Positions 36,786 to 63,371 of a stretch of DNA of 64,000 nucleotides are shown here, one piece after another. Within the stretch, counting starts at the first letter, position 1. Each line of letters starts with the position of its first letter. The DNA is taken from NCBI GenBank assembly GCA_963514005.1, contig OY740814.1, positions 10,292,001 to 10,356,000 on the forward strand. Direction: 5' to 3'. The position numbers and the translations under genes are program-made. The DNA comes from Raja brachyura. Taxonomy: Eukaryota. The notes beneath the pieces were generated by a model. That model did not search any database and had not been told where the DNA came from. It worked only from the letters and a program-made list of their open reading frames with translations.

Positions 36786-37232
36786 ATAATGAACACAAAC
36801 AACTTCAATTTTAAGCAAATACAAGACTTGTAGAAAATGAACAGGAAGAGTGATGAATGGGATGGTAATTTAAGAAGACGTATGTAAACAAAAGGTTTAG
36901 ATTCAAGAAATTAAAATAATCTGATGGCAAGGAAGAGGCTTATGAAGCTTTAAATGTGATAATGGAAAGGCTGATATATTCCATGTATAGATGTTATCCA
37001 AAGGCAGTAATCACTTCTCCCATGTCCTTTCATCCGCCAATACCATCACCACACCCAGTGGCTATCCCGCAATCATCCTTAAGACAAGGTTACAGGGTTA
37101 CAGTGATCATCAAGGACACAAGGAACGACAGATGTTGATTTACAATAATAATTTGATGATTACTGATTGGTTTCACAGTAGTGGGTTATATGATGTTAAT
37201 TTTGACTTTTTATTGTCATTTTCAGATTCAAA

Positions 37233-37578
37233 ATGAAAACAGATGAAACCCCCAAGTTCCAATCTTCCCTCAAAGACAATTGCGACAACTGCATAGCTAA
37301 GAAGTTTTCGCAAAGTACAATACCTCAGTCCCTTCATTTATGGCCTCATCAAAAGCAGTTGCTGTTTCAAAATGTCTCGCCTGCATTGGAAGCTGCTCCC
37401 AGGCTTCTCATGCCTGAGGATCATACACTAAAGAAAAGGAGGAGAGTGTTTTCTAGCCCAGAGATAGCAAGAGAATTTGCACTTCACCTGCTGTATTTTG
37501 CAGTTTTTGCTGTAGCTGTACTGGGTTTACTTCACTGGCATGGCATGATACAGCTATTCCAAGAAGAAAGTTGCAAAG
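37233..37578 (+). CDS. Putative first coding exon of a type II membrane protein (orphan gene, or N-terminal anchor of the CEMIP2-like gene)
   Basis: Acceptor tgtcattttcag| at 37225/37226, ATG 7 nt later (AAAATG), 115 open codons. KKRRR precedes hydrophobic FALHLLYFAVFAVAVLGLLHW. Strong donor AAG|GTAAGC, phase 1. Confidence 0.7.
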
Positions 37579-40500
37579 GTAAGCTAGACAGCATTAAAAC
37601 TACTAAAATAGAAGGGAATATAGATACGGTATGGAAAGATGGTGAACATAAGTAGTGAGAGGTGCCATGAAACCAAAAGGAAAGAATAAAAGTAAATAGT
37701 ACATTAGACTCAGATCTGCGAGAAATTTCAAACTTGACAAAAGATAAAAAGGATAACAGGTTCATTACACATAGATGGATGGGAAATTACAAAGAAAATA
37801 GAGCAGCGGCAGAACATGACAGTAGCAAATGACAGTACATTTGGCATCCCAGGAAACTAATAAAACAAAATCAAAGACTGGAATCAACTAAGTTTAAGTG
37901 GGATAGAAGATGGTACAGGAAAAATAATGGCACTTAATGACTCACAAATCCGCAGTTCTTCGGGAAAAAAAAGCTATAAAAAGCTATTCCATGTTGTCTT
38001 AGTTCAGGAATTAGCTATTTTGATTGGAAAACAACAAACATTTACTTAAAGAAAGATCTGATTGTTTTAACATAATGGATTGTGAAGGATGTGTTAAAAT
38101 ATGTAATAATGCATAATAGTTGAAGAGTGAGATGATTAGAGGGATCTAGTTCAGGGTAGGTCCAGCTGGACAGATTGGATTTTCTTTTGGGAAGGGGGAA
38201 TTAATGTAGAAGATTGTATTATTTATGGATACAGTTTATGCACTTGAAGGCTTTCAATAAGGTTCAATATAATAAACTGGAATAATAAAAATCCACAGAC
38301 TGAGGTGAAGCTATTGACCTGGGTGGAAATTTAGTTTTAAAGTAAAAGGCAGAGATTATTAATAATTGATATGTACAAGTATTTTGAAAAATAACCTTTG
38401 GTGTCCCTTAAGTATCTGTGCTGGTGTAATAAATGTGTATTCATGAATTAGGTTATGCAACAGAGACCATGTAGGGACAATCTTTTGTATTGCTGCACAA
38501 TGTTTAATGATGCTCCTCTGAACAATTTGAAATGTTTGAATGCATCATGATATAATACAAATACAAGTTGCTGCTGTTATGAATATTTATTGTAAATCTG
38601 TTCTGCACAATTTCCCAGGCTATTGCCACTGCTCCAAGTTATTATAAAGTAAAATTATATAAAATAGCCTTGCATTTCCTGTACAGTCAAAGAATAATGG
38701 GTGATTTGAACCAGATTTGAAGGATTTGGAAAGGAATTGATAAGGAGGACAGAGCAAATCCTTTTCTGCTAGTTGGGAGTTCAAGGATGAAGGAATATTA
38801 GTTTTAACTAGAAGGCAGGCCGCTTGGGAAGTAGTTCTTGATATTGCAAGTAATAGAAGGGTGGAGTATTTGCCCACAAAACATTATCTCTATAAATAAT
38901 TGTAAATCTGAGGTTTCTAATTCCAGTCCAGGATATTGACTGATATAAAATCAAGACGGAGTAGATGGAGTTAAGGCACCAATCATACATAATCTCATAA
39001 AATGTAGCAGAATGTCTTATCCCATTAAAAAAATATATATATTTAAATAGTCTTTTCCACATTTTTAGGAGGATATTCCATCTTAGTGGGCTCCAGAAAA
39101 AAACATGCATTATCCATCTATAAAATTAAATTGTTTTCTTCCTGCTATTACATGTAAGATGCACTATTGATTTAATTTCCATCTACTACAGGTGGCAACC
39201 TGGCACCAGTTGTCTTAACCTGAAGAGAACTCTAAACTGGTAAATCACTGACCTCTAGAATGCCAGAAGCACCTGAATGCCTTCAAGCTGTGGGTATTAC
39301 TAGGTGCTCTTATTGTGTCTTCCAAATGTTGATAGAGACATGCAAACCCAACTTGTAAAATCAGTTTGTTTTGTTGCTTTGTATTGGGCACAGGCCAAAG
39401 GGCGTACTACAACAGCTGGGAGCACTTTGTGTGCTCAGTGTAAAGTTTTAGTCTGTGTCTCCGTTGGAGAGTCACCCACCCTAATTAATAACAACACATG
39501 AAAAGGCCAGATTTCAGCAAATAAACGGCATCATTACTTCAAATTCCAAGTGGAAACAAAAACAGGAATTGATATTAGCAGCAACATAAAATCGGCCTAC
39601 ATTGTACAAAGCAAGAGAGGTGCTTTTTAATTGAGGCAGGTGGTAGATATGTAGGAAGTGAATTTGAGCTAAGAACATTGAAGAATTATATAACATGGCA
39701 GGGTATTGCATGGATGTTCCACTGGTGATCTTGACAGAAGCAATGGAAAGTAGACATACTATTATATCCACAGATAATTAAGGAGGTCCATGCTTGAAGT
39801 TAATTCTCAAGAGTTCGTGTGTGGTGTTGGAAGAAGCTCCTTGGTTTCACGCCCTGTAAGTGCTCCTTCAGGTACATTTTCTTACCACGAGCACCATCTG
39901 CCTCGGATATCTCTCAGTGCATACATCCGATCACTCAGCTCCCAACAGTCTGTATTAATCAGGACTTGAATGTTGGATTGCATCTTCATGCTTAGAGGAT
40001 AGCAGAAAAATAAAAATGACATACGATGGGACATTAAGCAACCATCGCTTAAGTCAGGCCAAGAGGAAAGAGAAAAAGAGGGAGAGGTTCAACATTGTTC
40101 TGTTGCAAAGAGCTCATCTGAAGCAATCTAAGGAAGATGCACAATGAATGCATAGTTAGCAAGCATGCTCGAGATCTCCAAAATGGAGTGTACAACTAGC
40201 TATATTGCAGAGTCTAATCTCTGTTGATTTAGACTTTATTGCAACACAGATAGCAGCCATAAAGGAATAAAGAATAGCAGCAATAGGAATAACAAAGTCA
40301 TACAGAAGAGAGGCCATATAATTCCTCCAAGCCTGTCCAGCATTCACTTAGATCAAGTATTAGTTGCACAAACCAACTTTTGCCACCTCAGCCTTTAGGC
40401 CCTTATATCTTAAAATATAGGCCTGTGCATTCTAATTCTAAAGCTGTAAAGACAAACCCACTATTTGACATTTCCTTCCTGTCCATGTTATTTTTATGAT

Positions 40501-42189
40501 CTTATAAAATGAGATCACTATAGTTCTCATAGTCCTTTCACCATAGTTCTTTAGATATGTAAGACGCCACTAGAACATTTTCCTCCTGAGGATAGTGGAT
40601 TGGCCCTTATCCTATTTGTGTTCTTGATACTTACTAACTTTTCACCATTTTTGAGGTACTCTATTCTACTATTTTAGGTACAAAAACATGCGCCTTGTCA
40701 AGATTGCAATCCATTTTTTGCCATTTTTCTTGTTTCCTTAATCTATTAATATCAATTTAATTCATTGCTTCTACCTAAACCACCCTTAATGGCGTGTATT
40801 GCGGTGGTGTAGGCAACATACCTTTTGTAACATCTGAAAATTTGGAGATGTGGCTTTCCACTCCTTCATCCATGTATCAACAAATGTTGGGAGTAGTTGT
40901 GGTTCCAACGTAGATCCCTGTTGGATCTACTTACATTCTGCCATTTGGACCCCATGTCCTGATGACAGTATGCCATCCTCGTTGTAATAAATGTTGATGT
41001 AAAATATTCATGATTTTTTAATATTTTTATATGTTTTCAAGGAATCCTGCTTTGCTTTGACTTTTCCTAATGTTATAAAAAATATTGATGTTCTTGGTTT
41101 TTCAAGCTTTTACTGTTCTGTGGCCATTTATTGTTCTTGCAATCTATCCTAGTTGACAGGTTCTGGGTGTTGGTTCTTGTATTGAAAGATGCATTTTCTT
41201 TTAATTTCATGTTAAGCTCTACAAATTAGTTGCCAACTGAAACTCTTTCCTCTTGAGGAAAGTATACTGGCACTTATCCCATTAAATTCCTTTATGAATA
41301 CTTCATACTGGTCTTTGTCTTTTTTTCCCCATTACAACTTATTGCAAACCGTCAATGTGTCAGTATTGAAGTGGGCTTGTCTAAGTCTAGAATACTTCAT
41401 GGCTGATTTTTCTATTTTTATTTTAATTACTATATTGATCTTGAATATACTACTTTTAAATAAATATCCATGCACTTTCAGGCTGTTAATGAAATCTGAT
41501 ATATAGCTCATTACTAATATTTCCAGCTATGTTGTCAGCTGTAGAAATGTTTTTGTTGCTGACCACTATCATGATAATTCTTGAGAAATTTACTTCCTTC
41601 CTGATAGGGTTTAACTGCATCTGTATGGAAGTTGAAATCCTACTGCTAATGAATTACTCCACCCTTGTTACACGTATATCAAATCTTAGAATTTGAGTTT
41701 TATGTCTTCAAATGCTACCAAAACAATACACAGTTCCCATCAGCATTTAAACTTATTTCCTATTTCATAATTCTACTTGTAAGGCTTCCAGTGCCAACTT
41801 ACCACGGTAACTAGCTTTCCAATTAATTAGTAATTTTATCATTGACCTCACAATCTCCTCCTCTGGGAATTAGATTTTATTTTGTGCGTCCCCCTCTCAA
41901 AATCCTGCACCATTTTTCTTTCGAGCATTCTAAAAAGGAAACCTGCAAATGCTTGCATGTTCTCAATGTCTCAACTCACACTGAACTGCACGTAGGACTC
42001 CGTCATTGAGAAGTGAGTCAAAATGAGCCTCATCTCCATTGACAAGCATGCATGCATAATTGTCGGCACATTTTTGTGTAATGCTCAGAAAATACTCATT
42101 CAAGGCCAATTGAAGTTCTTGTGTTCAAATCTCATTTAAATATATGTTCATAAATAATTTATGTTTAATGGTTATTAATTTTCACTTCA

Positions 42190-42760
42190 CAGTTGCAGCC
42201 TCGCAGTCCATTTCTCAAACTTGCTCTGCAAGTTAGATCTTTACCCATGCTCCAAATCATAGACTATGTACATTGACAAGTACACTTTGTGAACCATTTT
42301 CTCAATGCACTGACCTGCCTCTCTCTCCAAGTCTACCACCATCAACATCCTAGGGGGTCACCATTGATTAGAAAATCTGCTGGGCCAGACACCCAAGCAC
42401 TGTGGCTACAAGAAAAGGCCAAATGCTTGGTTGGTCTTGGCACCCTAATGCTTTCCACCATCTTATGCTTTCCACCATAAACAAAGCGCGTCTGAAGCAT
42501 TATAAGATGCTCTCCAATTGCCCGGATGAGTGAAGTTCTAGCGATACTCGAGATGCCTGACAGCATCCAGGACAAAGCAGGTCACTTGACTGGTGCTTAT
42601 CAAGCAACCTAAATATTTATTCTCTCCACCACTTCCAAACATTTGTGTAGCGTTGGGGCCCTCGAATGCATTGCAGGTGCGTGCCTGGATTACTTCAACA
42701 GAGCCTTCCAAACCTATGAACTCTACCATCAAGAAGGACAAAGCCAATAGCCATGTCACA
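42190..42760 (+). mobile_element. Old LINE (CR1/L2-like) RT C-terminal fragment
   Basis: Frameshifted ILGVTID-like segment (catcctaggggtcaccattga) and downstream LINE-like remnants. Confidence 0.5.
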
Positions 42761-43214
42761 CACAATCCACTCAGTATTACTCTTTCCTGTCTCGTACTGC
42801 TGCAAGAATGAAAAGTAGTGCAGCTTCAAATTTCTACAAATGCTTTGTAAGATTGTCTACCTAAGATAATCCTAATAATTAAGATGAATTCTGGGGCGAC
42901 TGCCTCTTGGTGTTTAAACACAAACTACATCCTGTAGCCAATGATTTCCTCAATGTAATTTTTTAAAATTCTGATTTTGTGGACTGGGCACTATTGGCAA
43001 AGCCATCATTTATTGTCCTTCCTTGATTGCTCATTGAGGTGGTGATGAACCACCATCAACTTAGTGGTTTGCTGGGCTGTTTCAAGTGGCATTTAAGAGT
43101 CAACCACAAGCAGTGATTAAAGTCGTATATTGCCCAGATCAGCTAATCCTGGCACATTTCATCTCCTGAAGGACGTTTATGAAACTATGGGTTGTTATGA
43201 CGCCAATAATACTT

Positions 43215-43930
43215 ATCAATTATGAGGGGGTTAGTGGAGGGGATTTGGAGAGGCAGGATCTATCTGCATTTGGAAAAGCAAGGACTAATTAGGGATAGTC
43301 AACATGGCATTGCGCATGGGAGCTTGTGTCTCATGAATTTGATTGAGGTTTTGAGGGCGGTTACCAAGAAAATTGACAAGGGTGGAGCTGTAGACGTTGA
43401 CTACATGGACATTAGCAGGGTTTTTTGCAATGCCCTGTATGGTAGGCCAGACTGGAAGGTGAGAACACATGGGATCCAGGAATGAGTCAGTGCATTTCAT
43501 ACAAAATTAGCTTGGTGGAAGGAGTCAGATGGTGACAGTGGAGGATTGTTTTTCAGATTGGAAAGACTTGTAACCAATGGTGTGCCACAGGAATGGTGCT
43601 GCATCCCCTGTGTTGTCATATACATTAACAATATAAATGCCTTGATGGTAACTTTGCGAATGGCACCAAGATTGGTGGTGCGATGAACACTGAGAAGATT
43701 GTCTAAGATTATAATGTATCTAGATTAACTGGAAAAGTGTGTAAATGAATGACAGATGGAAATTAAACTCGTGTGAATTACTGCATTTTGGTAGGTTAAA
43801 GCAAAACAGGAGTATAAAATAGGGCCTTGGGGATGTTGTAAAACAGAGAGACCTAGATGCACAGATACATAGTTGCCTGAAAGTGAGAACAAGAGAGATA
43901 AGGTGGTTAAAAGGGCAATAACGCCTTTAA
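43215..43930 (+). mobile_element. CR1-like RT fragment
   Basis: LIRDSQHGIAHGSLCLMNLIE..AVDVDYMD..WKVRTHGIQ, followed by decayed RT motifs. Confidence 0.85.
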
Positions 43931-45047
43931 ATCTGTTCACAAGGAAGCAAAATTCTGCTGTGTGAAGTCTACCAACGCATTAATTCTTAAATTCTCATAT
44001 TTCTTTATTACAAAAAAGGGAAAAAATGTGATTCAAAAGGGAAACAAAAGGCTTCCATTTTTATAACATCTTCACCACCTGGGATGTCCTAAATGACTTG
44101 TATCTAACAAGATACTTTCTGAAGGTCTGTCATAATTTTGATGAAGGAATGCAATGGCCTCTGTAACTCTACACCAGCACGATGGACGCCTGATCTCCTT
44201 AAAGCAACCAAGGATGGTCAAATATATTATCTTGTCAAAAATGTAAAATGCTAATAACAAATTAAGTTCTCTTGTCTGAACACTTCATAATGGGCCAAAG
44301 CAGTGGTGGGGTTGGGAGTACCCTTCAGAGACTGGCCAGTGGTGGAGAAAAAATCTTCCTTAAATCTCTCTAAAGTTCACAACTTTTACTTCAGGTAATG
44401 TATAAGTCTGCCAGGGGTAAACGTTTCTTACTAATTTAATCTATGCTCCTCAGCTTTGTTTCTCAATCAGATCTCTTCTCAGTCTTCTTCATACTGAGGC
44501 AAACATTCCCATTCTTTCCAGTCTCTCCTGTTAGCTGAAACACTCCACCTCAGCCACATACTGGTAAAAATCCTTTTTCACCCTCGCTAGTGTAATCGCA
44601 ACCTTTCCATGATTGTGCCAGCCAAAATTGCATAAAGCATTCCAGCTGGGGTCCAACTGGAATCTGTACTGTCAATCTGATGCAATTATTAATTCAGGAC
44701 CCCAACTACTTTCTCGAGTGAACATGAAATGTTCTACAGTATCATTTTGAAAGTGAAATAAAAAATGTCCTCAGTATCCATGTCAATATTCATGCCTCGG
44801 TAAATTCGTAAATCAGATTATGTGCATATCATAGTGGTACTTATATACATCAAAACAAAATACTGAGCTGGGACTTTGTGTTTTGGGACATCTTGATACT
44901 GACAAAGGTGTGATCATAAATTCAGTCTGCATTGCATTTTAGAATATATAATAATAATAATAAACAGACAAGTATAAGTATTCATTAAGAGTTACAACCC
45001 ATGTAATTTATTTTTTCAAATCTGAATATTTAATTTTTGTTCTTCAG

Positions 45048-45530
45048 ATGGTGATCAAATTCAAAGCACTCGTTGGAAGTTGTCATACTTCACAGCCAAC
45101 TCATCTGACATATACCCACTGCACAAACGATTTGTACGCAGCACAATACCAAGGAAAGACAAACAGGAGAAAAGTTTGCTGACCATCTACCAGAGAATGA
45201 CAGAAGTAAAAGACATACTACTGCAATGTGAATCTCTTGTTAAAGTGACCAATTATGTTCTGAGAGAAGCTTTGGGGAAAACTTTGGAGTTCTTCCCACT
45301 TCCAACCTGTGACCAGAGGCTGACTAATCAGATTACCAAAGTTGATCCACTCATTCTTGTTAGGGTTAAGATAAAACCACAGTTACTTTACCAAGCCTTA
45401 CACTTCCTGAAAGAGCTAGACTTGCTGGTGGATGCTCATCTAGCAAAAGCGTTCTACATTGTGAAAAAGCTAATGGTTATTAAGCAAGAAATGATATTGG
45501 GAAAGACAAGTAAAACCAATAATGAACATG
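45048..45530 (+). CDS. Putative internal coding exon (161 codons, phase 1-1), unknown helical ectodomain
   Basis: Acceptor tttttgttcttcag|AT, 483 nt open in AT-rich DNA, donor ATG|GTATGT. In frame with the 37.2-kb exon. Contains an NSS sequon and KRFVR|S. Confidence 0.7.
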
Positions 45531-45599
45531 GTATGTATTTGTTTATATTTTCTCCTTCCATGTAGATTTGTTGAGATTCTAAATTTAAAAAGCATATGT

Positions 45600-46450: not shown

Positions 46451-46516
46451 ATATCATTATAAGGCTGAGCCCAAAGAGAAACAAATATGAAGCAAAATAC
46501 TATAATGACAGCTACA

Positions 46517-48859: not shown

Positions 48860-49023
48860 TGATTACATCATCAACAACTTGGAGCTTGTCCTCAGAACAT
48901 GCGCATACACTAGTGCTGACTGCACACAACAGCTCAACAGCTCAAATCAATTCAAGGAAAACAAGTCAAGTTTGCACAACCAGTTTTCAATGCTGGTATC
49001 ATTTTAGTGAATCTGCACTGTAA
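48860..49023 (+). CDS. Candidate terminal coding exon of the intergenic membrane-protein gene
   Basis: Acceptor ctctcatatgtttcag|TG is phase-1 compatible. Ser/Thr-rich VITSSTTWSLSS..NSSTA..SAL*. AATAAA at 49057-49062, just after the stop. Confidence 0.45.
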
Positions 49024-51269
49024 ACTCTGCAAACCCAATATATCCGAAGGTAGTTTAATAAAACTCCATGAGGCATATGTGTTGAATTTCAACATCTACA
49101 AATCCACATACCTCTCAAACTGGAAATATCCTTGATTCTAATGGGTTCACCTTTAAAGGGCTAAAGTACCTGACATCTTAAGTGAAGGGCTTAACTTAAG
49201 GTCAGAGGAAAGGTCCAGAACTGAAAAGTAATCTATCTATTCCTACACATGTTGCCTAACCCGCTGAGTCCTCCAGCATTTATTTTTTGCTTAAGTGAAT
49301 CCTTGTTTAACATATATTTTAGTAGTGCATTCAAAGGACCAATATTAAAATCTAAATAAATCTTAACCATTTTTTTTCAAAGTTATCTCTACAATTAATA
49401 TCAAATGATCTTTCCGTCAAAAATAAATCGGTGCTCTTTATCATTTTAAGAATATCAAGTGGAACTCCTCATTCTACCCTTTTCCGTTGAAAAAAATGAT
49501 TTCCGGATGCTGATAGCTTAAAACTTTGCTCATTTCTTGACCTTCTCCAAGGCCTCAATTTCCGTCATGTCCATCAAAGTGAGTAAAATTGAGATACATT
49601 TCTAACATCTGCTGTGAGGGTCTGAACAGCAAACCTCTACTGTCTTCATGGTTTATTCCTCATATCATGGCTTATACACAGTGACATTCATTGCATGGTC
49701 ATAGCACCTCTGGGTTCATCATTGGCTAATCATATTGTCTGATAGAATTCTTAAAGTTAAATGTTTTAATTGTACGCATCCCATTCACTAAATCCATTTG
49801 TGTATGTTATTTTTCTAGATGATTTGTCAGAATGTCCCATGCTTTTCCATGTTATGTCTATCCATTTGCTTTGTTTTTACAGTCTTAAAATGGCTGAAAA
49901 GGAACAGGACCCACAGAAAGTCCTTTAAAGGTAGAGTTCGGCCGAGGCCCTTACTTGGTCCAGACTGTGTTATATGTTATTAGTGCATGGCAACTCCAGT
50001 GTATAATGACCATTTCACTTGCTCAAACATCTTGATTTGTACCATTTGTTCCCATTTCTTCCCATTTCTTCCAAATTCTTCCCATTTGTTTCGTGCTCCG
50101 TACCGTTGCACTGACAGGATTTGACACTGAGTAGGTCAATGAGTTTCGTGCTACTATTTATCCCGAATAAATAGATTTTGTTGGACAAATCCTGAATAAA
50201 TTATACACTAATCTCAAAGTATTGCCATCTTTGACAGACAAATTGTTTTGAGTTGTGTTGGACATGATGTTTGATAAATGAATAATATAGATAGGACACG
50301 AGATGAAACACATCATTAAATTCATTCAGACTGGCACCAAACCATAGGGTTCCTTTTTTAATGAGAAAAAAGAGAACTTTTTTTTGATAATAAAATCATC
50401 AAAAGCACAATCAAGAAATTATATTTAGTAGGTGGCCATTAATAGAGAATGACGCACATATATTTACTTTAAAAAGAGGAAATTCCACCCTATCATTAGA
50501 TAAGCTTGGGTGTACTGATGATGTTTAAAAGGTGATAGAAAGTTAGTAACATAAAATCAATTGAGGTAGAAATACCTGTCATTGTAATGTGTTACATGGG
50601 CTGTTTAAAAAAAAATGTCATATGGAATCACTGTTAAAATCAAAAGAAAGATAGCCAACTGATTATTTAGTGTATGCAAGGTGCTCGAGGAACTGAGTAG
50701 GCAGCGCAGCATCGGGGGGGGGGGGAGGGGGGGGGGGGTGGATTTGTGGTGTTTTAGATCACGACCCTTCAGCCAAGACCCGAAACATCACATCTATTCC
50801 CTCCCCAGATGCTGCCTGACCCTCAGAGTTCCTCCAGCATTTTGTGTTTAGCTCAAGATTCCATTAAGTAAGTCGACATTATCGACAGTTTCTTCAGTCT
50901 CCTAGTTATCCAATCTATTATTTATTTAGTTATCCAATCTATTATTTATTTATTTCAATTAATTATATATATATAATATTGCCCCAGCAGGAGAGATAAA
51001 TCATATATTACTGTAATTTTAAACACACCCACTGATGGTGTGCTTTCAGCAACTTTCTCTCTACAGTGCTGCTGGTGCTGCCACCTAATGAACAGTCAGA
51101 GTACCTTTTCTGAAATAAATGACATCTGGTAGCTTGGCCGTTGAGATTATATTTTGCTCCACTTTCAGCAGGCTTACATAAAAGCTGCCCTGAGCAAAAC
51201 TGTTTCTCACTTAGTATTTACTTTATCGTCCTTGGTAAATAGATAATTTGATGTTTCAGAAGCATAAAA

Positions 51270-51625
51270 CGCGTATAAGACCATGAGAGGAATAGATAGG
51301 GCAGATGACAGCGTCTTTTACCCAGGGTGGGAGAATCAAGACCAGAGGACATAGGTTTAAAGTGAGGGGGAAAAGATTTAAAAGGAACTTAAAGGGCAAC
51401 TTTTTTACACAAAAGGCAGTGGATATATGGAATGAACTTCTAAAGGAGGAAGTTGAGGCAGGTACTATCATAACGTTTAGAAGATATTTGGACAGATATA
51501 TCGATAGGATCCGTATAGAAGGACATGGGTCAAATGCAGGCAGGTGGGACTACCATAGATGGGGCATCTTGGTTGGCATGGGCAAGATTGACTAAAGGGC
51601 CTGTTTCTGTGCTCCATTACTTAGA
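51270..51625 (+). mobile_element. CR1-like 3' end
   Basis: KTRGHRFKVRGKRFKRNLKGNFFTQKAVDIWNEL, followed by the tail aagggcctgtttctgtgct. Confidence 0.9.
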
Positions 51626-52930
51626 CTGTTCATTCATGACTTACTTAAAACATTTCAATATATAATTTAAACCGTTAATAAATTGGCAATATTAGCAATA
51701 CCGGCCATACTGCTAAGAAATTTAAATTATTTTAAACTCTGCCCTCGACATGTCCAATTCAGTTTTGGCCGGCAAGGGGAAGTTGGGCTGAAGGACCTGT
51801 TTCCATGCCGTATGACTCCATGTCTCTATGACTTGATAAAACAAAATAGAAATCATTTGTCCTCTATGTTTTCAAAATAAAAAATATTTGTTATATTTCA
51901 TGAGGTCATTATACCTGCTAAAATAAGTATAGTTATTGAAAGGCAGTGGATATATCAATGTGTAAAACCCACTGTTTGCAACAAAGCTGTAAATGCTGAC
52001 TCTGCTATTTCCAGCCCAATGGAACCCGCGTTAGATGGCAATTGGGATTCCACTTATTAAATCAAAATTGTATGTGCTTGTAATTTATGAATCCATTAAT
52101 AGCCACTTTTTACTTCGTAATGTTTACAATGATGATGAATGAACAGTTCTTTGTTTTGGTAGTGTCTTCAAACTATATTCAAAATAATTAGTTAGCCATC
52201 GCGTTATAAAAGAGAATCAGTTGTTAATGTAAGGAGATTCCCTCACCAGAACAAAACATAACTATGTAGTGATAAACTTATTTTGCATGTGTCCTACTGT
52301 AAACATATCAATTTCACTGGAAAGTCTATTGATATTAGCGATGAATGATCTGTGGCATCTACTTATCTTTGCTCAGTCAGAATGTTGAATTCATGTTTCA
52401 CTCCTGAGACCTGAGCAAATGATTACGAGTGATGCTTCTGCACATGTCTAAGGAAGTACTACACAGCCGAAGATGCCACTTTTAAATGAGATATTTAACT
52501 GGGGCTCTATCTGTATATCCATCGGCACCAAACAGTGTCACTCATTTCTGTGAATTCTCCTTGTACATTGTTGTTAGTTTGTTGAATGCAGCTCAACATA
52601 AAATGGCTGTGAAGCTATTGGGCATTCTGAATGGATGAAAGCCACATATTAAATGCAAATTTGTTTTTGCTATTGTTTATGTGAGGAGTTTGAATTAATT
52701 TCTGAGAGCAGTTTTAATTAGTCTGAATTTTTAACCTTTTACACTTTTTAAGTATTTACTAATCAGTATTGATTAGATAATGTAGCAATGAAAAATAGCA
52801 ATCTAAAATGGGACATACAAGTTGGTTGAAAATAATACCAAGTTTTAATTTGTAAGCATTTCCCATAACATCACATTGCTTTCTGTGAATATGTTGTGCT
52901 CAAAATATTTTCTGCCTATTCAAAAAATAG

Positions 52931-52984
52931 AAGATTGTGCCCCCTGGATTCCAGAGTTACTAGTTTGTCATCATGGACAAGATG
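52931..52984 (+). other. Possible 54-nt phase 1-1 mini-exon or relic resembling the start of the CEMIP-family G8 exon
   Basis: tag|AA GAT TGT GCC CCC TGG ATT CCA GAG TTA.. encodes DCAPWIPELLVCHHGQD. Splice sites are weak. Confidence 0.25.
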
Positions 52985-54844
52985 GTATCTATCTAAAGAT
53001 ACTAGCAATATAATACACAAAAGTAAAACATTCTGTAAATCTATACATTTCAAATTTAGTCAAAGAGATTAAACAATGTTCTTCACAATCATTTTAAACC
53101 TTTACTTCTGTCTAATATTCCCACAGCTAGTGTTTCTATTTAATATTTATCATCTCCTGTGGAGGGGCATATTTATTATCTACTACTTTAATTTCAGTGA
53201 AAACAAGAACAAGGAATAATGCTATTGTTTTCAATTTCTGTGTTTTTTTTCCCCCAGCATTTACATTTTTTAAATGTTCTACAAATATCAGGTGGTTTAA
53301 GACACATTGAAGAATTTTTGTATACATGCTAAGGATATCTGTGAAGGCATAAAGTTCAGTAAATTACTGCTCAGCCTGCCTGACTGTGCGAGGATTGTGA
53401 GGAATAGCTGTCAGATTTAAAGTGTTTCTGGCAAACCACAAACTTGCTCAAAATGACTACCAAGCAGGCAGAAGGCAGCTTGCAGTTAGAAATGAGGTTA
53501 CTACACTGGAAGAGTAATAGAATGAAAGAACAAACTTGCATTTATAAAGCACCTTTCCCATCAGTGCTAATTAAAACACTGCATAGCTAATAAAGTGTAC
53601 AAGTGCCACTCAGTAGTTTAGTGGTGTAATGGTTACGTTACTGGACTAATCTATTTAGGCAATTTGAAAATGCTGTATGGAATTTGGTACTAAAAGCTGG
53701 TTTCCTGTGAAAGTGACCACAAAACCACTGTCATAAAATCATAACCAACTTACTAATGACTTAACCTGGTATATGAATGCAGCCGTGACTAATGCAAGCC
53801 ACTTGGGTTGTATCAATAACAATGAACTCAAAATGTTGGCACATTCTGAAAATGATTTTTTTAAAATACAGGTAAGAACTAATTTATACTCAAAATGATC
53901 GATATTTCACCTTTATTCATAAAGCTAATGTTTCTATTGAACATAATAGGATATGTGGGCACATTTGTTATCTGGTTCTATAATTAATGAAATTAAGATC
54001 ACAAATTACTGGGGGAAAGAAAGGCTGTTGGTTTGATTGAGAATCACAATGTGATATTAATGCAACAGTGACAGCTGGAAAATCTTCATTTATAGCAACA
54101 TTTCAGTATGTTAAATGTAATAAATGTGAAAAATGATTCAGCATTTTAATCCACATCATATAATATTTATAGGGCTGTTTGTGAGCCGAGTTAAAGCCAT
54201 CCGGTTTTCCCTGATATAAATTTTCCACACTTCTTCCCAATTTCAGTTCTCTTCATAGAATCCCAACTTTGTACTACTCAGCTCAAGAGTCCTGTTCAAC
54301 ATCACATCCCAAATCTTCTGCTGTACAAATCATCAGCCATGGCTTTTGACACCTGCAATCCAGTTTTGTTGGCCTTAGTACCACGGAATAGAAACTTAAT
54401 CCTCATCAATCAGGTTCCGCTCACCCGGCAGCTGTTCCCACCAGCTCTCTCCTTGTTTCCTTTTCTATTTCTATCAAAGTCCCCATTCATAATCAATTTC
54501 CCTTTTCAGATAAATAAAGTTCTATCGTATCATATGGCCTTGTTTTGCCCAACTCGTTTACATTCCAGCAGACACATGCATTCATTCACTGGGCATGGGT
54601 ATTGCGGCCGAGACAAATGTTTATGGCCAGTTGGCAGGAAGTCAGGGGACCTCCTTGCACCTTCTCTCAGGCCGAGCTGTAACAACTGTTTGTAGATCCC
54701 TTGACGAGGATGTGGTGCCTGCCCCTCTTCCTTGGTCTACTGGTATAATTTCAACCTTCTGTAACTTTGATGAATTGGTATGTGTTTAGGTTGGAGCACA
54801 ATGCTGAGATATTAGTTTGACTGGAATATCCATTGATTGAAACA

Positions 54845-55160
54845 TGAGGGCAGTAGAGTGAGATAGCAGGAAGTGCAACTGCCCTCACAGTTACAGCAAC
54901 CTGGGATTGACCCTGACCTCTGCTGCTGTCTGTGTGGAATCTACATATACTTCTGCTGTTTCTAGTTTCTCCCAATCCCATAAACTTGCTGGTTCGTAGG
55001 TTAATTGGCCCCTGTAGATTGCCCCTGGAATAGGTTGGTGGTAAGATATTTTGGTGATGACTCAATGAACATATGGAAAGATTGCAGTGAAATAAATAGG
55101 GTCTTTGGGTTATTTTGTAACATGGCATAGACTTGATCGATGAATGTTCTCCTGTGTCAT
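54845..55160 (+). mobile_element. Degenerate V-SINE (HE1-like)
   Basis: ctgtctgtgtggaat..gtaggttaattggcccctgtagattgccc motifs shared with other SINE copies. Confidence 0.65.
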
Positions 55161-56199
55161 AAAGAAGATTAGTGTATTTCTTTTTAGTGGTGATTTGAAA
55201 TGAGTATGGATTGTGATGATTTTCTTTTTGCTGGTCTGGGGCATCACAGAAGCATCGTTTCAGACCTGCACCAGTGCAAATGTACAGCACTTCTTCATCA
55301 CGGCTTGTCCATTTTTCAAATAGCCTTGGTATCTGTTCCCTATCACTAGAGACCTTCTGGGATAACTTCACCCTTCCTCTCCATCTCCTACTATGCCATC
55401 GTTAACCATTTGGAATCTGAATTTTTACTACTCTCATAAAGTTCCCAGAAACGTTTTTTTTCTAATTTAAGTCTTTTTTATAATGTCATTGGAAAATAGG
55501 TGTCCGTTAATTGGAGAGTATTTAGATTTTAGTTTTGACTTTCAATTGGTTAATATAGAATTTGTTTGAATCGGAATGTTGTCTACAAATTCATATGCCT
55601 GTATGGATCACAATAATTCATATTGATGATATAATGCATTAGCTCTGCAATTGAGAATTAGTTAAATATAATAAAAGGTGTATGAAAACAATTGGAGATG
55701 TTCAAGTAAGCTGCAAGTAGAAGAAACAGCAATGAAACTTGTGATTGCTAAGTCTCTGTTAGAGATTTAGGAACATTGGTATAATGTGTGTTGAGTTACA
55801 GATTTATACATTGCCAAATTAAAACATGTCCTTGGTTCCAATATAAACTCATCAGAAGTAGACTACAATGAAGGGAAATGTGTTGTGTTAGAAACCACCC
55901 ATTCTATGATGTTTATTCTTTGTAACCCTTGTACTCCCTGGTGAGATTTGTAAATTATTTCTTGTTTCCTTTAAAATGCTCAAGGAATAAAATGTAATCC
56001 ACAATGTGTAAAGGGACCCATAAATGGAATCATGAAAAATTCTAGGGCTGTAGGTCAACATTCCTTCACTGAACAGTGGGTGAAACAGCAGCTGATGTAC
56101 ACCATGTGCCCAGAGGTGAAATCTGTTGGGGGGGGGGGGGAGGGGTTAAGTTGAATGTTAAATTTCATGTCAATGCATTGAATGCCAATTAGATTCTCT

Positions 56200-56745
56200 G
56201 AGAGTGAAGAAGAGACAAAAGAAAAGGGAGGGAGTTGAAGAAGGTTTAGCAGGGATAGAAGAAGTGAGACCTCATGAACATGACTGGAGGTGGCAAAAGA
56301 AAGAGATGGGAAGAAGATTGATGGCAAGGCAGGGTGAAGTGAGATTGAGGGATGAAGAGATGGAAGGGAAAAGTGAAACCACTGGGATGTGACCACTGAA
56401 GAGAAAGGAAGAAGGGGAATGAGGAAGTAATGTGGGCTGAATAGCAAAGGGGGGGAGGAAAGGTAGCTAATTGGACAGGGAGCTTGATGGAGGGGTGTGA
56501 AGGACTGAGTAGGTAAGAAAGGATGTGGATGGCAGGAAGAATTAGGACTAGAAAACGACAAAGATTGAAAGAAAGAGGAATGGAAAGAGTGGGAGTGAAG
56601 GATGGAGGGAAGAAAGGAGAGCTGCAAGTAAGGAGGAGTGAAGGATAGAGAATGCTCAGATTATAGGAAGAAGAGGAAGGGAGAGAAGTGAGAATAGTTG
56701 AGAGAATAAGGGAGGGAGGGAGGGTAAGGGCAAAGCATGAACATA
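56200..56745 (+). repeat. Purine-rich low-complexity tract
   Basis: About 550 bp of G/A-rich sequence with no fixed period. It produces the spurious minus-strand L/S/P/F-rich ORFs. Confidence 0.8.
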
Positions 56746-56764
56746 GGTAGATCATTCATCTTAG

Positions 56765-57900
56765 AGTTATAGAGTCATACAGTGTGGAAACAGACCTTTC
56801 AGCCGAACTTGCCCATGATGACCAACATACCCCATTTAAACTAGCCCCACCTGCCTGCTTTTGGTCCTATCCCTCTAAACCCATCTTCTCGAACCTGCTT
56901 GCATTCAATAAGATCTTAGCTGCTCTTTTACTTCAGCACCACTTTTAGAATATAAAACAGTACAGTACAAGAACAGGCCCTTAGGCTCACAATGTCTGTG
57001 CTGAACATGATGCCAAGACCAACTCTTAGCAGCCTGCTCGTAATCCATATCATTCCATTACCTGCATATTCATGTGCCTATCCAAAAGTCTCTTAAATGC
57101 CACTATCGTATCTGCCTCAACCACCACTCCAGGAATTCGCCACCCTCGTTGTAAAAAGACTTCCCCACACATCTTCTTTAAACTTTGCCCCTCTCACCTT
57201 AAAGCTATGCCCACTAGTATTTGATTTTTCCATCCTGGGAAAAAGATTCTTATTATCTATCCTATCTGTGCCTCTCATATGTCCCCATGCAACCTCTGGC
57301 ATTACCCCCTAATCCCAGGCATCATTTTGGTAAACCGCCTCTCAAGAGTCAAGTCAAGAGAGTTTTATTGTCATGTGTCCCAGATAGGACAATCTGTGGC
57401 TGTGGGGAAGATGCTGTTCCTGAACGTGGATGTTTCAGATGTTCACTCTTTCCAAAGCCTCCACATCCTTCCTGACCAGAACTGGATGCAATATTCCAAA
57501 TGCAACCTAATCACCGTCCTATAAAGCTGTATTATGCCTTCCTGGTTCTTATACTCAATGCCCTGAGCTACGAAAACAAGCATACCATATGCCTGCTTTA
57601 CGACTCTAGCTACTTGTGTCGCCACTTGCAATGAGTTGTTCACTTGGACCCCAATATCCCTCTGTACTTCAATGCCATTAATTGTATATTTCCACACATC
57701 ACATTTACTCAGATTGAATTCCATCCACCACAATCCTCTGTCTTCCATCATTAAGCCATTTCTGAATCCATACGACCAAATCATTGTTAATCACATCCAC
57801 CTTAATCTTCTGAGTCAGCCTACCATGGGTGACTTTATTCATATGCCATACTAAAATCCATGTACTAACCCATACCCCTTGACTCCCTCGTCAAAATTGG
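56765..57900 (-). mobile_element. Stacked CR1-like 3' fragments
   Basis: Minus translations SNTSGHSFKVRGAKFKED and LYRTVIRLHLEYCIQFWS. Several CR1 tails. Confidence 0.85.
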
Positions 57901-59429
57901 CACAGATTAGGTGGGCCAGAGGACATTTTCCCGTTCTTTCTGACTCCAAGAATCCAAGCCTCCACACACCTGGGCCCCAGCACCAACCCCTGTGGCACTC
58001 CGTTAGGTTCAGTCTCCAAACCTAGCCCATTAACTAATCTCCAATCAGCAGTATATTACCATAGTATCACATTCCCCAATGAAATCTTATGAAAATTTGA
58101 ATACTGCACAACCACGGGTTTATACTTATGCAATTTTGTTAACTACAATATCAAATCTGATTTCCCTTTCATAAATCTAGGTTGACTGCTGAATCTTATA
58201 ATTTCTTTCAATGTGCCCTTCTATCACTTCCATAATAATAGATTCCTACATTTGCTCTGCAACCAATGTCAGGCTAGCTGGTCTTAAACTGAAAGTTGAC
58301 AATCAATACATCCAATATCTCTACTGCCAGGTTTTACCAAACCTTGAAATGTAAGTCGTGAGTCCCAGGATTTATCGACTTTAAGTTCCATTAATACTTC
58401 CATACATTTTTTGTGTTTTACTGCCTTAAAATTGGAATGTATTTGTCGTAATCTATGTGTTCATTCTCTAAATATCATATTGGTTGTCTACAGTCAGGCA
58501 TTTTTAAAGTAGATTTTCAACTTATCAGAACCATAGGTGCCTCATGCATTCATATTTGGTTTTGTTTAGTTTTAAGATCTGGGTTGCAATAGAACTAATT
58601 CACTTGCAAACTTTTTTAGGTAATATAATCTTTTTTTTTACCCACGTTATTAGTTAGTCCTTTCTCATAGCACATTGAAGTAAAAATAGCCTGTTTTCTA
58701 ATTGGTTCCACAACATAGAACTCTAAAGATCCCATGTTATATGGATACTGTCAATACATCCTCCACCCTACTGCTGCTAATTTGGTTTCCATGGTATATG
58801 CGTAGGTTGAAGTCCACCATGGTTATTGCATTACAATTGCAACATGGAGTGAGGATGAGGGAGGTGTGACAGTGTGATTGAATATGAAGATTGGGGAGGG
58901 AAAAGGATCAATGATCTGAGGTTAATGAGAGGCAACAAAAGGGTTAACTGGAATTGAATGGTGAGAGGTTGTGGTAAGAATGAATGAGGTAGAATGAGAT
59001 GGAACAGCATTTGGCACAACATTTAATGCTGGTGCCTCAATGCTGCAGGGACTTGAGATATATGCTGACCTCGGGTGCTTTCTATAGGAAGTTTGCACAT
59101 TCTCCCTGTGACCACAAGTTTCAGACTAGTGTGCGCTGAAAGGTTAATTGTCTTTTGTAAATTATTCTTATTGGAGGCAAGTAGCGAGGGGGGAGATAAT
59201 GAGAAGGAGATGGGGTGAGGAGGGAAGGGCTAAAGAGGAGCGTGGGTGTGGCGCAGGTGAATAGAAGTGAGAGGGGGCATGAGGTGAGGGTGTAATGGTG
59301 ATGAAAAGGAGATGGGAGAGGTGCGATAAGGATATGGAGGGGGTGGGTGTGAGAGCTGTGGGGGTAAAGTGATGAGGGTGGCGGAGGTGAGCGGTGTGGA
59401 GGGAGGATGAGAAGTGTGCGGGAGTGGGG

Positions 59430-60500
59430 GAGGTGAGGGCTGTGATGGAGATGAGGGGTGTGGAGAGGAGGTGAGGTGCAGGGGTGAGGGGCGTGGATGG
59501 GGGGGATGAGAAGGTGTGAGGGAGGTAAGGTGTGTGATGGATGTGAGGGGTGTGGAGAGGGAGTGAGGGATGTGGATGGGGAGATGAGTGTGAGGGAGGT
59601 GAGGGCTGTGATGGAGATGAGGGGTGTGGAGAGGAGGTGCAGGGGTGAGGGGTGTGGATGGGGAGATGAGTGTGAGGGAGGTGAGGGCTGTGATGGAGAT
59701 GAGGGGTGTGGAGAGGAGGTGCAGGGGTGAGGGGTGTGGATGGGGAGATGAGTGTGAGGGGGGTGAGGGCTGTGATGGAGATGAGGGGTGTGGAGAGGAG
59801 GTGCAGGGGTGAGGGGTGTGGATGGGGAGATGAGTGTGAGGGAGGTGAGGGCTGTGATGGAGATGAGGGGTGTGGAGAGGAGGTGCAGGGGTGAGGGGTG
59901 TGGATGGGGAGATGAGTGTGAGGGAGGTGAGGGCTGTGATGGAGATGAGGGGTGTGGAGAGGAGGTGCAGAGGTGAGGGGTGTGGATGGGGAGATGAGTG
60001 TGAGGGAGGTGAGGGCTGTGATGGAGATGAGGGGTGTGGAGAGGAGGTGCAGGGGTGAGGGGTGTGGATGGGGAGATGAGTGTGAGGGAGGTGAGGGCTG
60101 TGATGGAGATGAGGGGTGTGGAGAGGAGGTGCAGGGGTGAGGGGTGTGGATGGGGAGATGAGTGTGAGGGAGGTGAGGGCTGTGATGGAGATGAGGGGTG
60201 TGGAGAGGAGGTGCAGGGGTGAGGGGTGTGGATGGGGAGATGAGTGTGAGGGAGGTGAGGGCTGTGATGGAGATGAGGGGTGTGGAGAGGAGGTGCAGGG
60301 GTGAGGGGTGTGGATGGGGAGATGAGTGTGAGGGAGGTGAGGGCTGTGATGGAGATGAGGGGTGTGGAGAGGAGGTGCAGGGGTGAGGGGTGTGGATGGG
60401 GAGATGAGTGTGAGGGAGGTGAGGGCTGTGATGGAGATGAGGGGTGTGGAGAGGAGGTGCAGGGGTGAGGGATGTGGATGGGGAGATGAGTGTGAGGGAG
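59430..60500 (+). repeat. 82-bp G-rich minisatellite, about 11 near-identical copies plus degenerate flanks
   Basis: Unit GGGAGGTGAGGGCTGTGATGGAGATGAGGGGTGTGGAGAGGAGGTGCAGGGGTGAGGGGTGTGGATGGGGAGATGAGTGTGA. ORF starts recur every 82 bp (59624, 59706, ...). Confidence 0.97.
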
Positions 60501-60579
60501 GTAAGGGGTGTGATGGATGTAAGGGGTGTGGTGGATGTAAGGGGTGTGGAGAGGGGCGTGAAGGATGTGGTGGTGTCGA

Positions 60580-60790
60580 GGCGGTGTGGAGCTGGGATGG
60601 GGCGGCCGGTTGGGTTACCCCGAGGGCCGGATTCTCCCCCTCGGCGGGCGGGCGGCAGCCGCTCGCTGTCACGGAGGGCGGACCGAGCCAATGAGCACCG
60701 GGAGGCGGGGCGGCGGTGCGGTGTCGCCGGGCGAGGTGAGCGGCCAGCGAGCTGGGTATAAATAGAGCAGTGACTGCCGGCTGCGGGCAG
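60580..60790 (+). promoter_or_regulatory. CpG-island TATA promoter of the CEMIP-family gene
   Basis: GC boxes (60676, ~60700-60713), CCAAT (60688), TATAAATA (60757-60764) in canonical order and spacing. Predicted TSS ~60787. Confidence 0.8.
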
Positions 60791-60945
60791 TCGGCGGCGA
60801 GCGGCGGCGGCGCTGGGACAGACTGACTGACACCAGCCCACAGCGATCAGAGCTTCTCAATCCGCGGCAGACAAATAGACAGACAGACGGACATCAGCGG
60901 CCGGAGCCTGGGAAACGCTCTCTGGCTGCACCCAACTTGCTACAG
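60787..60945 (+). other. Probable non-coding first exon from the proximal promoter
   Basis: GC-rich leader without ATG, ending at donor CAG|GTGCGC. Start inferred from TATA spacing. Confidence 0.5.
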
Positions 60946-61406
60946 GTGCGCACTACCCGGGTGGGTGTTGCGGCGAGCGGGTGGTCGGGACCAGGTTGGC
61001 AGAGGGTGTTGTGCGTGGCGGGAGTGTGTGTGGGGCAGTACTGGTACAGGGAGTTGTGCTGACTGTAGTACGTGCCAAACAGTTTCTGATTTCTAGGCTG
61101 CTAGTTTGTATTTTGTGCTGCCTTCTCCATTGTGATTCTCCATCAACCACCCGCCTGGCCCCTCTACTATAATGTATGGATTATCTATCAATAATCCGTC
61201 GCAAACCTGTCCCTCTTCCGAGGGACATTGACAGCCTTGAAACTAGGATTAAACTCACAGCATCAGCGGCAGGATGAGCCGGAGCCCATTTGTGCACCGC
61301 AACTGGTTTATACAACAGGTGTGTAACTTTCTTGTTATCAACATTTGAACACTATATATTAAGTAATTGCAACCACATGTGATAGTGAATGAGAATTCTC
61401 TTTTAG

Positions 61407-61547
61407 TGGACTGCCCAGATAAGGCCATATATTTATTACCCTGGAACCCTGGACATCATGAAAATAAGAAGGTTAAGATTGGACGGGGAATGTTCCTAAA
61501 ACTGGAGTCTTCTGCCTCGCTACATTCCATTATTATAGAGAACGGGG
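61407..61547 (+). CDS. CEMIP-family (TMEM2/CEMIP2-like) hyaluronidase, first G8-domain exon
   Basis: Acceptor ctcttttag|TG. Encodes DCPDKAIYLLPWNPGH..IGRGMFLKLESSASLHSIIIENG. Donor G|GTAAGT, 141 nt, phase 1-1. Confidence 0.92.
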
Positions 61548-61810
61548 GTAAGTTTAATTTGTTAAATGTCTTTCATACTTGTAAACAATTCCCAAATCAA
61601 ACTGTTTTGCTTCTTTGAGACTCTGTTTTATGCATAGGTTTTCACATTCCTTCCTGACAGAGTAGATACTGCCTTTATTTACAGTTGGAAAGTGTGGGCG
61701 ATGCTAAATGCATCTGAGTTTTGGATTATTTTTGTGATGGGATTTCTGTTCAAGGTAAAAATCACCCCCTGGTGACCATTGGTGACCTTACTATGGACAT
61801 TATTTTGCAG

Positions 61811-62369
61811 GTAAACTCGTGTTCAACGATGCGCCGAGATCCCCTATCACTCTGAAAGCCCGCTATATTCTGATCAGGAACGGCGGCGAGCTGCACATCG
61901 GAGCGGCAAAATGCCCCTATATTTCCAGCGCCACTATTACTCTCTACGGAAAGTCGACAGACGCACTAAACGTGGAGCATTTTGGTCAGAAGTTCATTGG
62001 CGTGGACAAAGGTGGTGTTTTGGAATTGCACGGAAGGAAAACCTTGTCCTGGACATCTTTAGCCCAAACTCTCTACCCCGGTGGCCTGCAGTCTGGGGCT
62101 TACCGCTTTGACAGGTACTGGGGCAGCAGGGGTATCAACATCAGGGTGATCGATCCCGGCACGGCCAAGGTGCTCGCTGCCCACCGTTTCGACACTCACC
62201 TCTGGGCGGATGAGAGCAGGCGGCTGCAGGAGTTTTTACGCCGCCAACCCAGAGGGCGAATAGTGGCCATCGCGGTCGGTGACTCGGCCGCTAGGAGACT
62301 GACGCTGTCTGCCAGGAATGACCTGAGAGAACTGCTGGGGAGCAAAGAGGCGATGCATCTGGGCTACAG
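61811..62369 (+). CDS. CEMIP-family (TMEM2/CEMIP2-like) hyaluronidase, G8/GG-domain exon
   Basis: Acceptor ttttgcag|GT. Encodes YILIRNGGELHIG..CPY..ITLYGKS..FGQKFIGV..GGVLELHG..SWT..RFDTH..ESRRLQEFL..GRIVAIAVGDSAA..LGY. Donor AG|GTGAGC, 559 nt. Confidence 0.95.
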
Positions 62370-63207
62370 GTGAGCCAGCTCGCATCGTGCACGGGTTGTT
62401 GTGCGTGGCCGCGCTCCCACTGCGTTTTGAGGAATGTATTTACATTTTAAATCCAGTTTACTTTCAACAGACAGCAGGACGCGTCCCTGACGTTTACTGC
62501 TCTAATTCAATTCGCGTGATAGATTAAATCTAATCCGGTAAACGAGGCTTTCCGTTTGCTCATTTGTTGCGGCAGTTTTTACCCAAGCCAGTTCCCCTCT
62601 TCCCAATGTTTGCCTGCGTTTATAACTGTGTGACAACAAGATGGAGGAAACCAGAGGCCGGGGCATTCCCTATTCCCCACATGCAGTCGAAAACGTTGCT
62701 TGACGTGCAAGGTATCGATTGTCTTGTCAACTCGGGTGAGATTTTCAACTCGCAGGTTCTTTAGCAGATTTGGATCAAGGCCAAGGGTATCCATTCGCTG
62801 AAGTATATTTTAATGATTGCAATTGGAACCACCATGGACAGCTCCCCGGGTCCTTTCTCGGGCGACTGGTCAGAATGGTTGCAAAGTGACAGCAAAACGC
62901 AAAGTGCTGGAGCTACTCAGCGGGCCAGATAACATCTGTGGAGGGAATGGACAGGAGATGTTTCCTATTGAGACCCTTCCTCGGTTTCCTCCTCCCTCCA
63001 CCAGCACAATAAGTTTTGCTCAGGATTCAAGCATCTGCAGTTACCTGTGTCTCTAAAAAAAATACCATAATTGAAACCCATAATGTGTATGTTTATATAG
63101 TTCACATTATGTATTCATTTGTTTCATACAAGCATATTTGCCATTGTAAATCAATCACAGTGGCAGACAATTTAATTACGATCTTTGCCAATCTTGTCTT
63201 ACTTTAG

Positions 63208-63371
63208 GCAACCATGGGCTGTGATTGGAATTCTTGGTGAATTAATTGCTATGGAAGACAAACAACTGTACCAGCCTAATGGGTCAACCGGTATGGCTGT
63301 AGTAAGAAGAGACTTTCAGACGTATGATGGGATTCATTTCACAGTCACTGCTTTCAGTGAATGGGTGAGAG
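63208..63371 (+). CDS. CEMIP-family (TMEM2/CEMIP2-like) hyaluronidase, GG-domain exon; gene continues beyond window
   Basis: Acceptor tactttag|G. Encodes QPWAVIG..RDFQTYDGIHFTVTAFSEWVR. Donor G|GTAAGT, 164 nt, phase 2-1. Confidence 0.93.

Follow-up and report, generated by a model that had tools for sequence, protein, structure and literature searches.

The window analysed here is a 64,000-nucleotide stretch of the genome of the skate Raja brachyura (assembly GCA_963514005.1, contig OY740814.1, positions 10,292,001 to 10,356,000 of the forward strand); coordinates below are counted from its first letter. It contains ABHD17C (14.5-29.8 kb) and, downstream of it, the 5′ part of a gene encoding a G8-domain protein. 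By its sequence this gene is a third paralogue of the CEMIP family, neither CEMIP nor TMEM2 proper; it lies between ABHD17C and CEMIP, and we refer to it as CEMIP2-like. A first-pass annotation of the window, made from the letters alone, had proposed that exons far upstream of the G8 exon could be spliced to it in frame, giving a membrane-anchored hyaluronidase from a locus with two promoters. The exons and encoded elements are as follows.

34561..34625, + strand: alternative upstream coding exon, CpG-rich, with ATG at 34561 and a phase-2 donor; adds 22 amino acids (aa) in frame to exon A
35307..35344, + strand: 3′ part of a second alternative upstream exon (5′ end unmapped), matching Amblyraja isoform X2 at 13/13 aa; GT donor after 35344
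37226..37578, + strand: exon A, with ATG at 37233, phase-1 donor AAG/GTAAGC, an 81-aa tail and a hydrophobic segment
45048..45530, + strand: 483-nucleotide (nt) exon, phase 1-1, encoding a linker, an RxxR site and a helical domain; included in every long model
45128..45139, + strand: candidate furin/proprotein-convertase site RFVR, aa 143-146, at which cleavage is predicted
45227..45511, + strand: helical domain of about 95 aa, with two cysteines at aa 176 and 203
48860..49062, + strand: proposed terminal exon (approximate position), rejected below
49883..49930, + strand: 48-nt exon, phase 1-1, encoding a 16-aa basic linker; alternatively spliced
61407..61547, + strand: first ectodomain exon, with the CPD motif, the start of G8 and an internal in-frame ATG at 61490
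61811..62369, + strand: exon of G8 and the first GG/ILEI (lectin-like) domain by Pfam; spliced in three RNA runs
63208..63371, + strand: next coding exon, the last in the window

Together with seven further 10-kb stretches, the window yielded a gene model of 25 exons (19 of them beyond the window) with only GT-AG junctions, one stop and an intact open reading frame (ORF) of 1,565 aa, about 95% identical to Leucoraja isoform X5. Skate proteins matched the exons in the window at 91-97% identity. The product of exon A was identical to that of Leucoraja at 107 of 115 positions and to that of chimaera at 36 of 111, and the product of the exon at 34561-34625 agreed at 22 of 23 residues with the N-terminus of isoform X1 of Amblyraja and Leucoraja. 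The observed/expected (o/e) CpG ratio was 1.01 across 34250-34700, and we regard about 34.3-34.6 kb as a candidate distal promoter. The encoded ectodomain has the CEMIP/TMEM2 family architecture of G8, GG/ILEI, parallel beta-helix and second GG, with Pfam matches in the window to G8 (E = 2e-25) and ILEI (E = 4e-19; exon 61811-62369).

Three G8-bearing genes were found in the skate genome: CEMIP2-like; TMEM2, on another contig (C3); and CEMIP, which stands in tandem with CEMIP2-like on the same contig, has a signal exon of its own and begins about 6.5 kb past the CEMIP2-like stop. In a tree of 28 rows, CEMIP (support 100), TMEM2 (99) and CEMIP2-like (94) formed separate groups; the window model fell in the last of these as sister to Leucoraja, and it carries the two-cysteine helical domain before the CP motif that marks the group. 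The tree was a quick, midpoint-rooted one with no outgroup, its TMEM2 rows coming from four tetrapods and its CEMIP rows from five sharks, and it therefore does not settle the order of the duplications. An ABHD17 paralogue, which we take to be ABHD17B, lies 126 kb upstream of TMEM2, and its order and strand match the arrangement of ABHD17C and CEMIP2-like. CEMIP2-like thus occupies the position expected of a TMEM2 duplicate.

The proposed long form was borne out. The donors at 37578 and 45530 are phase 1 and the acceptor at 61407 requires phase 1, as the first-pass annotation had noted, and the joins of 37578, 45530 and 49930 onto 61407 are all in frame. A phase match on its own is weak evidence, expected about once in three by chance, and the support for the long splice therefore comes from homology. 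Among the matches listed (the best 15 of 24 for the skate cluster), with seven CEMIP models, the ABHD17C models and a 313-aa Narcine model set aside, exon A, the 483-nt exon and G8 occurred together in 45 of 64 chondrichthyan models; 23 of these included the 48-nt exon and 22 lacked it. The others were 17 models with neither exon A nor the 483-nt exon, one starting at the 48-nt exon and one without G8. None of the 64 kept exon A without the 483-nt exon, contrary to the earlier suggestion that this cassette is optional. Isoform models of the RefSeq type are usually based on RNA-seq junctions. When the 483-nt exon was used as a query, eight proteins were found among 677 candidates, of which six were full-length CEMIP2-like models. 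Outside the cartilaginous fishes, the helical domain likewise stands ahead of the CP motif in sturgeon, paddlefish, gar, coelacanth, lungfish, frogs, salamanders, turtles, alligator, birds and a lizard; eel-lineage models (P0046, P0200 and P0208) lack it and retain a signal-like segment directly before the ectodomain. In skate TMEM2 and CEMIP, the anchor or signal exon likewise ends in phase 1 before the CP exon. The long splice thus very probably occurs in Raja brachyura. The first-pass annotation had omitted the 48-nt exon at 49883-49930, a second proximal donor at 61318 and the upstream exons ending at 34625 and 35344.

Upstream of this gene, the donor of ABHD17C exon 2 (22307-22486) is in frame with exon A (37226), and in three Mobula birostris RefSeq models (498-515 aa) a truncated ABHD17C reads through to the tail, hydrophobic segment and helical domain.

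The 483-nt exon had been regarded as a passive stalk; conservation and predicted structure show instead that its core is a conserved folded domain. Its first 55 residues are variable. From the first cysteine onwards, identity to the skate sequence was 50/85 in chimaera, 41/86 in lungfish, 35/83 in Xenopus and 28/85 in an owl, and the two cysteines were invariant across 50 aligned rows. AlphaFold predicted three main helices with a predicted local distance difference test (pLDDT) score of 70-92 per block, and the domain was still confident when folded with the N-terminal half of the ectodomain, the linker then scoring below 50. No Pfam match above the cut-off and no PDB sequence match was obtained for the domain. 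Fold comparisons gave a best E of 3.3 with Foldseek, a best Z of 6.5 over 62 residues with VIA and a best value of 0.83 with Atlas; such a lack of family and fold matches is not proof of a new fold. A scan of 1.84 billion representatives returned eight matches, seven of them CEMIP2-like and one a repetitive protein, and a second copy was not found in the skate genome. No mammalian protein with the domain turned up, a weak negative since one search scored 8,000 candidates and missed known frog orthologues.

The product of exon A has a KKRRR cluster at aa 67-71 and a 21-aa hydrophobic segment at aa 82-102 (37476-37538), which holds the most hydrophobic 19-mer of the protein (mean 2.43). In skates this arrangement resembles that of skate TMEM2; in bony vertebrates the segment is shorter and, as judged by eye, ends in a small-residue pattern typical of cleavable signals. 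Between the segment and the helical domain, an RxxR motif was present in 19 of 21 chondrichthyan rows, 10 of 13 amphibian rows, 3 of 4 rows of ray-finned fish and lungfish, and 3 of 13 sauropsid rows, against a background of 101 in 785 ectodomain windows of equal size (13%). These counts come from 52 rows examined, of which 49 were parsed, with Mobula and two sturgeon-lineage rows then added and coelacanth left unresolved; rows of related species are not independent. The anchoring claimed in the first-pass annotation is doubtful because RxxR follows the segment and because the segment looks cleavable in bony vertebrates. Going by its sequence, the CEMIP2-like protein is probably released, by shedding or secretion, and does not stay permanently in the membrane. 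It would enter the endoplasmic reticulum (ER) through the hydrophobic segment and be released by signal peptidase or furin, the common end state being a soluble protein with the helical domain as a cap. We consider furin shedding itself somewhat more probable than its absence.

The 16 residues of the 48-nt exon were all identical in Amblyraja and Pristis, and the exon is optional, as Amblyraja, Leucoraja and Pristiophorus each have models with and without it. The introns flanking it (49819-49981) are highly conserved in rays in translation (Hypanus upstream, Narcine downstream), beyond exon A. This conservation is typical of a regulated alternative exon and fits splicing signals. The basic linker that it encodes shows a heparin-binding-like pattern, a second RxxR and an N-glycosylation sequon, read from the sequence by the familiar forms of these patterns.

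A terminal exon at 48.9 kb, which had been proposed to give an enzyme-less product, was not upheld, having a weak acceptor and no database protein match. Using a matrix trained on the acceptors of the CEMIP2-like gene itself, the acceptor at 48860 ranked 169th of 1,079 AG sites in the interval and that at 49883, which was excluded from the training, ranked 4th. Twenty-two sites score as highly as 48860 and have an ORF of 20 or more codons and AATAAA, and the 5′ part of the proposed exon has two short matches elsewhere in the genome. The exon is unsupported rather than disproved. A truncated product would come more plausibly from read-on past the 49930 donor, as in the Narcine model, but conservation is just as high in the intron ahead of the 48-nt exon.

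Immediately upstream of the ectodomain exons lies the second promoter region.

59424..60531, no strand assigned: 82-bp minisatellite of 13.5 copies immediately upstream of the proximal promoter, its end about 200 bp from the proximal TATA box
60540..61050, + strand: proximal CpG-island promoter (GC 0.68, CpG o/e 0.90; CCAAT at about 60688, GC box at about 60707, TATA at 60757)
60740..61318, + strand: proximal first exon or exons, donors at 60945 and 61318; in-frame ATG absent in Raja brachyura

The TATA element that had been reported at 60757 is present (TATAAATAG), and the CpG o/e of the island compares with 0.26 in the intron background. Contigs of four runs (X13, X1, X4 and X6) were aligned to 60540-64000, and those of X13, X1 and X4 were taken as RNA because they are spliced. 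X13, which showed no listed letter differences over the exons, gave contigs at 60740-60945 and 60916-61318, joined 61318 to 61407 across a GT..AG intron and included one piece with a retained intron. In X1 and X4, from related organisms, the proximal region was covered and the G8 exons were spliced identically; X6 had next to no coverage of 60540-64000. A donor at 60945 fits the contig break and is not itself a listed joint. The contigs give no start, strand or level, and depth at 60888-61003 and 61352-61467 exceeds what the listed contigs account for. Short interspersed repeats at 62891-62964 and 63534-63645 had many matching contigs in all four runs. In translation, the stretch at the 61318 donor (61313-61345) matches chimaera models at 8 of 11 residues. 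Models from owl and falcon read through a GC-rich stretch immediately ahead of the CP exon, a hint of an internal CpG promoter in birds as well.

The coding capacity of these proximal RNAs is limited. In its short version the proximal exon contains no ATG; the long version contains three, and at least that at 61274 runs across the splice out of frame. A signal peptide was not found in the proximal exon in any frame, and a scan of ATGs confirmed the earlier observation that no ATG-led hydrophobic leader lies in frame between the TATA box and 61407. Amblyraja has the ATG at 61274 in frame; in Raja brachyura one base missing at 61301, relative to X1 and X4, puts it out of frame, and X13 agrees with the assembly. 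A non-coding first exon would be expected to yield models that begin at an internal Met in G8, and there are 11 such database models, from nine chondrichthyan species. The Met at 61490 was present in 12 of 18 chondrichthyans and in none of 11 bony vertebrates. An ATG out of frame with this Met stands 32 nt upstream, and its ORF overlaps the 61490 start. The anchor-less form suggested earlier was thus supported as to transcription by the RNA contigs; these RNAs offer only an ORF that lacks a leader, is truncated in G8 and begins at a non-conserved Met. The proximal promoter is probably real and old, and a functional short protein is doubtful.

Every one of the 19 paralogue rows (the window and 18 others) retains the GG1 residues equivalent to R265, D273 and D286 in TMEM2 numbering. 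The number of R265 follows PMC10206443, a study that detected no activity and could not assign an active site. A His248/Ala303 pair was needed for activity in cell assays according to PMC12423501, and PMC10474455 reports that purified human TMEM2 ectodomain was active without this pair. In shark CEMIP rows His occurs with Arg or Gly, and the rule for residue 303 may not be general. On sequence grounds, hyaluronidase activity of the CEMIP2-like protein is an even question.

We therefore propose, at a probability of about 0.72, that the locus is one gene with two promoters, whose full-length protein has a cleavable front end carrying a domain of its own. The exon structure, the intact ORF, the paralogy, the conservation of the domain and the proximal transcription were all observed in this analysis. 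From the distal promoter (about 34.3-35.3 kb), a full-length protein of 1,565 aa would be made in the order tail, hydrophobic segment, short linker, RxxR, two-cysteine helical domain, optional 16-aa basic linker and complete TMEM2-type ectodomain. It would enter the ER through the hydrophobic segment, acting as a type II anchor in skates and rays and as a cleavable signal in bony vertebrates. A cut by a furin-like convertase would then release a soluble protein that binds or degrades hyaluronan and has the helical domain as its cap. The proximal CpG/TATA promoter would give shorter RNAs that lack any leader.

Several observations weigh against this proposal. The long form is supported by predicted database models, and no read or contig joined 45530 or 49930 to 61407 among contigs aligned to 60540-64000 only, with 327 loose ends unlisted. 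In some annotations the locus is divided, the N-terminal part standing as a model of its own in Narcine, two turtles and Xenopus laevis. RxxR is found in only 3 of the 13 sauropsid rows and is absent from both Chiloscyllium rows, gar and both Xenopus rows, and the call of signal versus anchor was made by eye. The equivalents of His248 and Ala303 are Tyr and Arg, and the CEMIP2-like clade has a support of 94 from a quick tree with no outgroup.

Some of these points would also suit other explanations. The stand-alone models (Narcine, 313 aa; Malaclemys, 258 aa; Pangshura, 328 aa; X. laevis, 301 aa) could mean that exon A and the helical domain form a small secreted or membrane protein, that the G8 gene starts separately at the 60.8-kb promoter and that the long models are read-through or annotation joins; the Mobula models that join exon A and the 483-nt exon to ABHD17C, and the fact that the RNA directly observed is proximal only, would agree with this. 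However, the in-frame join recurs from chimaera to birds, the proximal RNAs would leave a cysteine-rich ectodomain without a route into the ER, and the eel models have a signal-like segment straight before the ectodomain. The stand-alone models that could be compared end by reading past the donor, the Narcine one matching 49931-49974, and two separate genes are very improbable. Alternatively, the main product could come from the proximal RNA, translation from the internal ATG 61490 giving a cytosolic beta-helix protein without a leader. RNA contigs cover the proximal exon in three of the four runs, the 11 models from nine species start within G8 and the 61318 donor sequence is recognisable in chimaera, but the Met is absent in 6 of the 18 chondrichthyans and in all 11 bony vertebrates shown, and the overlapping ORF of the upstream ATG stands before it. 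According to PMC10206443, G8 belongs to a continuous beta-helix, so that a start at 61490 would cut the fold. A leader from ATG 61274, which is in frame in other skates, is out of frame in Raja brachyura, and we regard a leaderless main product as improbable.

The closest rival in protein layout is the first-pass reading itself, which treats the long form as a type II enzyme held permanently in the membrane, as TMEM2 is, with the 483-nt exon serving as a spacer. The skate segment behind its basic cluster looks like that of skate TMEM2, several lineages lack RxxR, and a batoid Trp three residues ahead of the apparent signal-peptidase position argues, by eye, against signal cleavage. In contrast, RxxR recurs at one aligned position in nearly all chondrichthyan rows, well above background, the bony-vertebrate segments are short and signal-like with small residues at their end, and the core of the 483-nt exon, being a conserved domain with a fold, is unlike a spacer of low complexity. 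A permanent anchor is thus unlikely, and the cleavable front end remains our preferred reading.

Elsewhere in the window, a hAT transposase remnant lies at 3480-3998 (Pfam Dimer_Tnp_hAT, E = 1.9e-6) and a long GC-rich tandem array with many spurious ORFs fills 15000-17900 in ABHD17C intron 1. Fragments resembling reverse transcriptase of long interspersed nuclear elements were recognised by eye at 19161-20018 (- strand), 43210-43485, 51256-51595 and 57443-57854.

The long and short CEMIP2-like forms and the 48-nt exon are already present in automatic annotation. No description of the paralogue, its helical domain or its processing was found in the literature searched, with subscription journals and supplements outside the scope of that search; what was found under "TMEM2-like", "tmem2l" or "cell surface hyaluronidase-like" concerned PKHD1L1, human CEMIP or transcriptome tables. 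An entry "transmembrane protein 2-like", which may be the CEMIP2-like gene, appears in tables or lists in PMC6347800, PMC10398974 and PMC5035141; in the first of these it is up together with CEMIP in chicken shell gland. Studies of TMEM2 and CEMIP take the family to have two members, one anchored and the other secreted, whose catalytic mechanism is disputed. The third paralogue, which has an N-terminal domain of its own and probably a site for a convertase, gives a natural comparison for the study of release and control, and it is relevant to studies in chick, frog and shark, where CEMIP2-like is often labelled TMEM2 or CEMIP. At its most speculative, and as a long shot, non-mammalian jawed vertebrates might keep a third CEMIP-family pro-protein that is shed by furin, with the helical domain gating or targeting the enzyme, the basic 16-aa exon tuning matrix binding and an ancient internal promoter giving a translated, intracellular beta-helix isoform with no leader. 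If that were true, one locus would supply anchored, shed and cytosolic forms.

Among known systems, TMEM2/CEMIP2 (PDB 8C6I) is alike over the whole ectodomain (Leucoraja orthologue aa 300-1565, 1,637 bits), in the same two-exon layout of CP and G8+GG1, in the phase-1 intron after the hydrophobic exon and in the ABHD17 gene upstream. The CEMIP2-like protein differs in that about 177-193 additional residues separate its hydrophobic segment from the CP motif, so that the RxxR site and the helical domain intervene where TMEM2 has its anchor immediately before that motif; its gene has an internal promoter, its own locus and its own tree group, and the tails have no evident similarity. CEMIP (KIAA1199/HYBID) has the same Pfam architecture and is secreted, likely the end state of the CEMIP2-like protein as well, whereas its short N-terminal signal stands directly before the CP motif, its G8+GG1 is spread over more exons, the helical domain is lacking and it occupies a long separate branch. 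The RefSeq and UniRef models named "cell surface hyaluronidase (CEMIP2)-like" in sharks, rays, chimaera, non-teleost fishes, eels, amphibians and sauropsids are the orthologues of the gene described here; their N-terminal region has no assigned domain, and they are often labelled TMEM2 or CEMIP.

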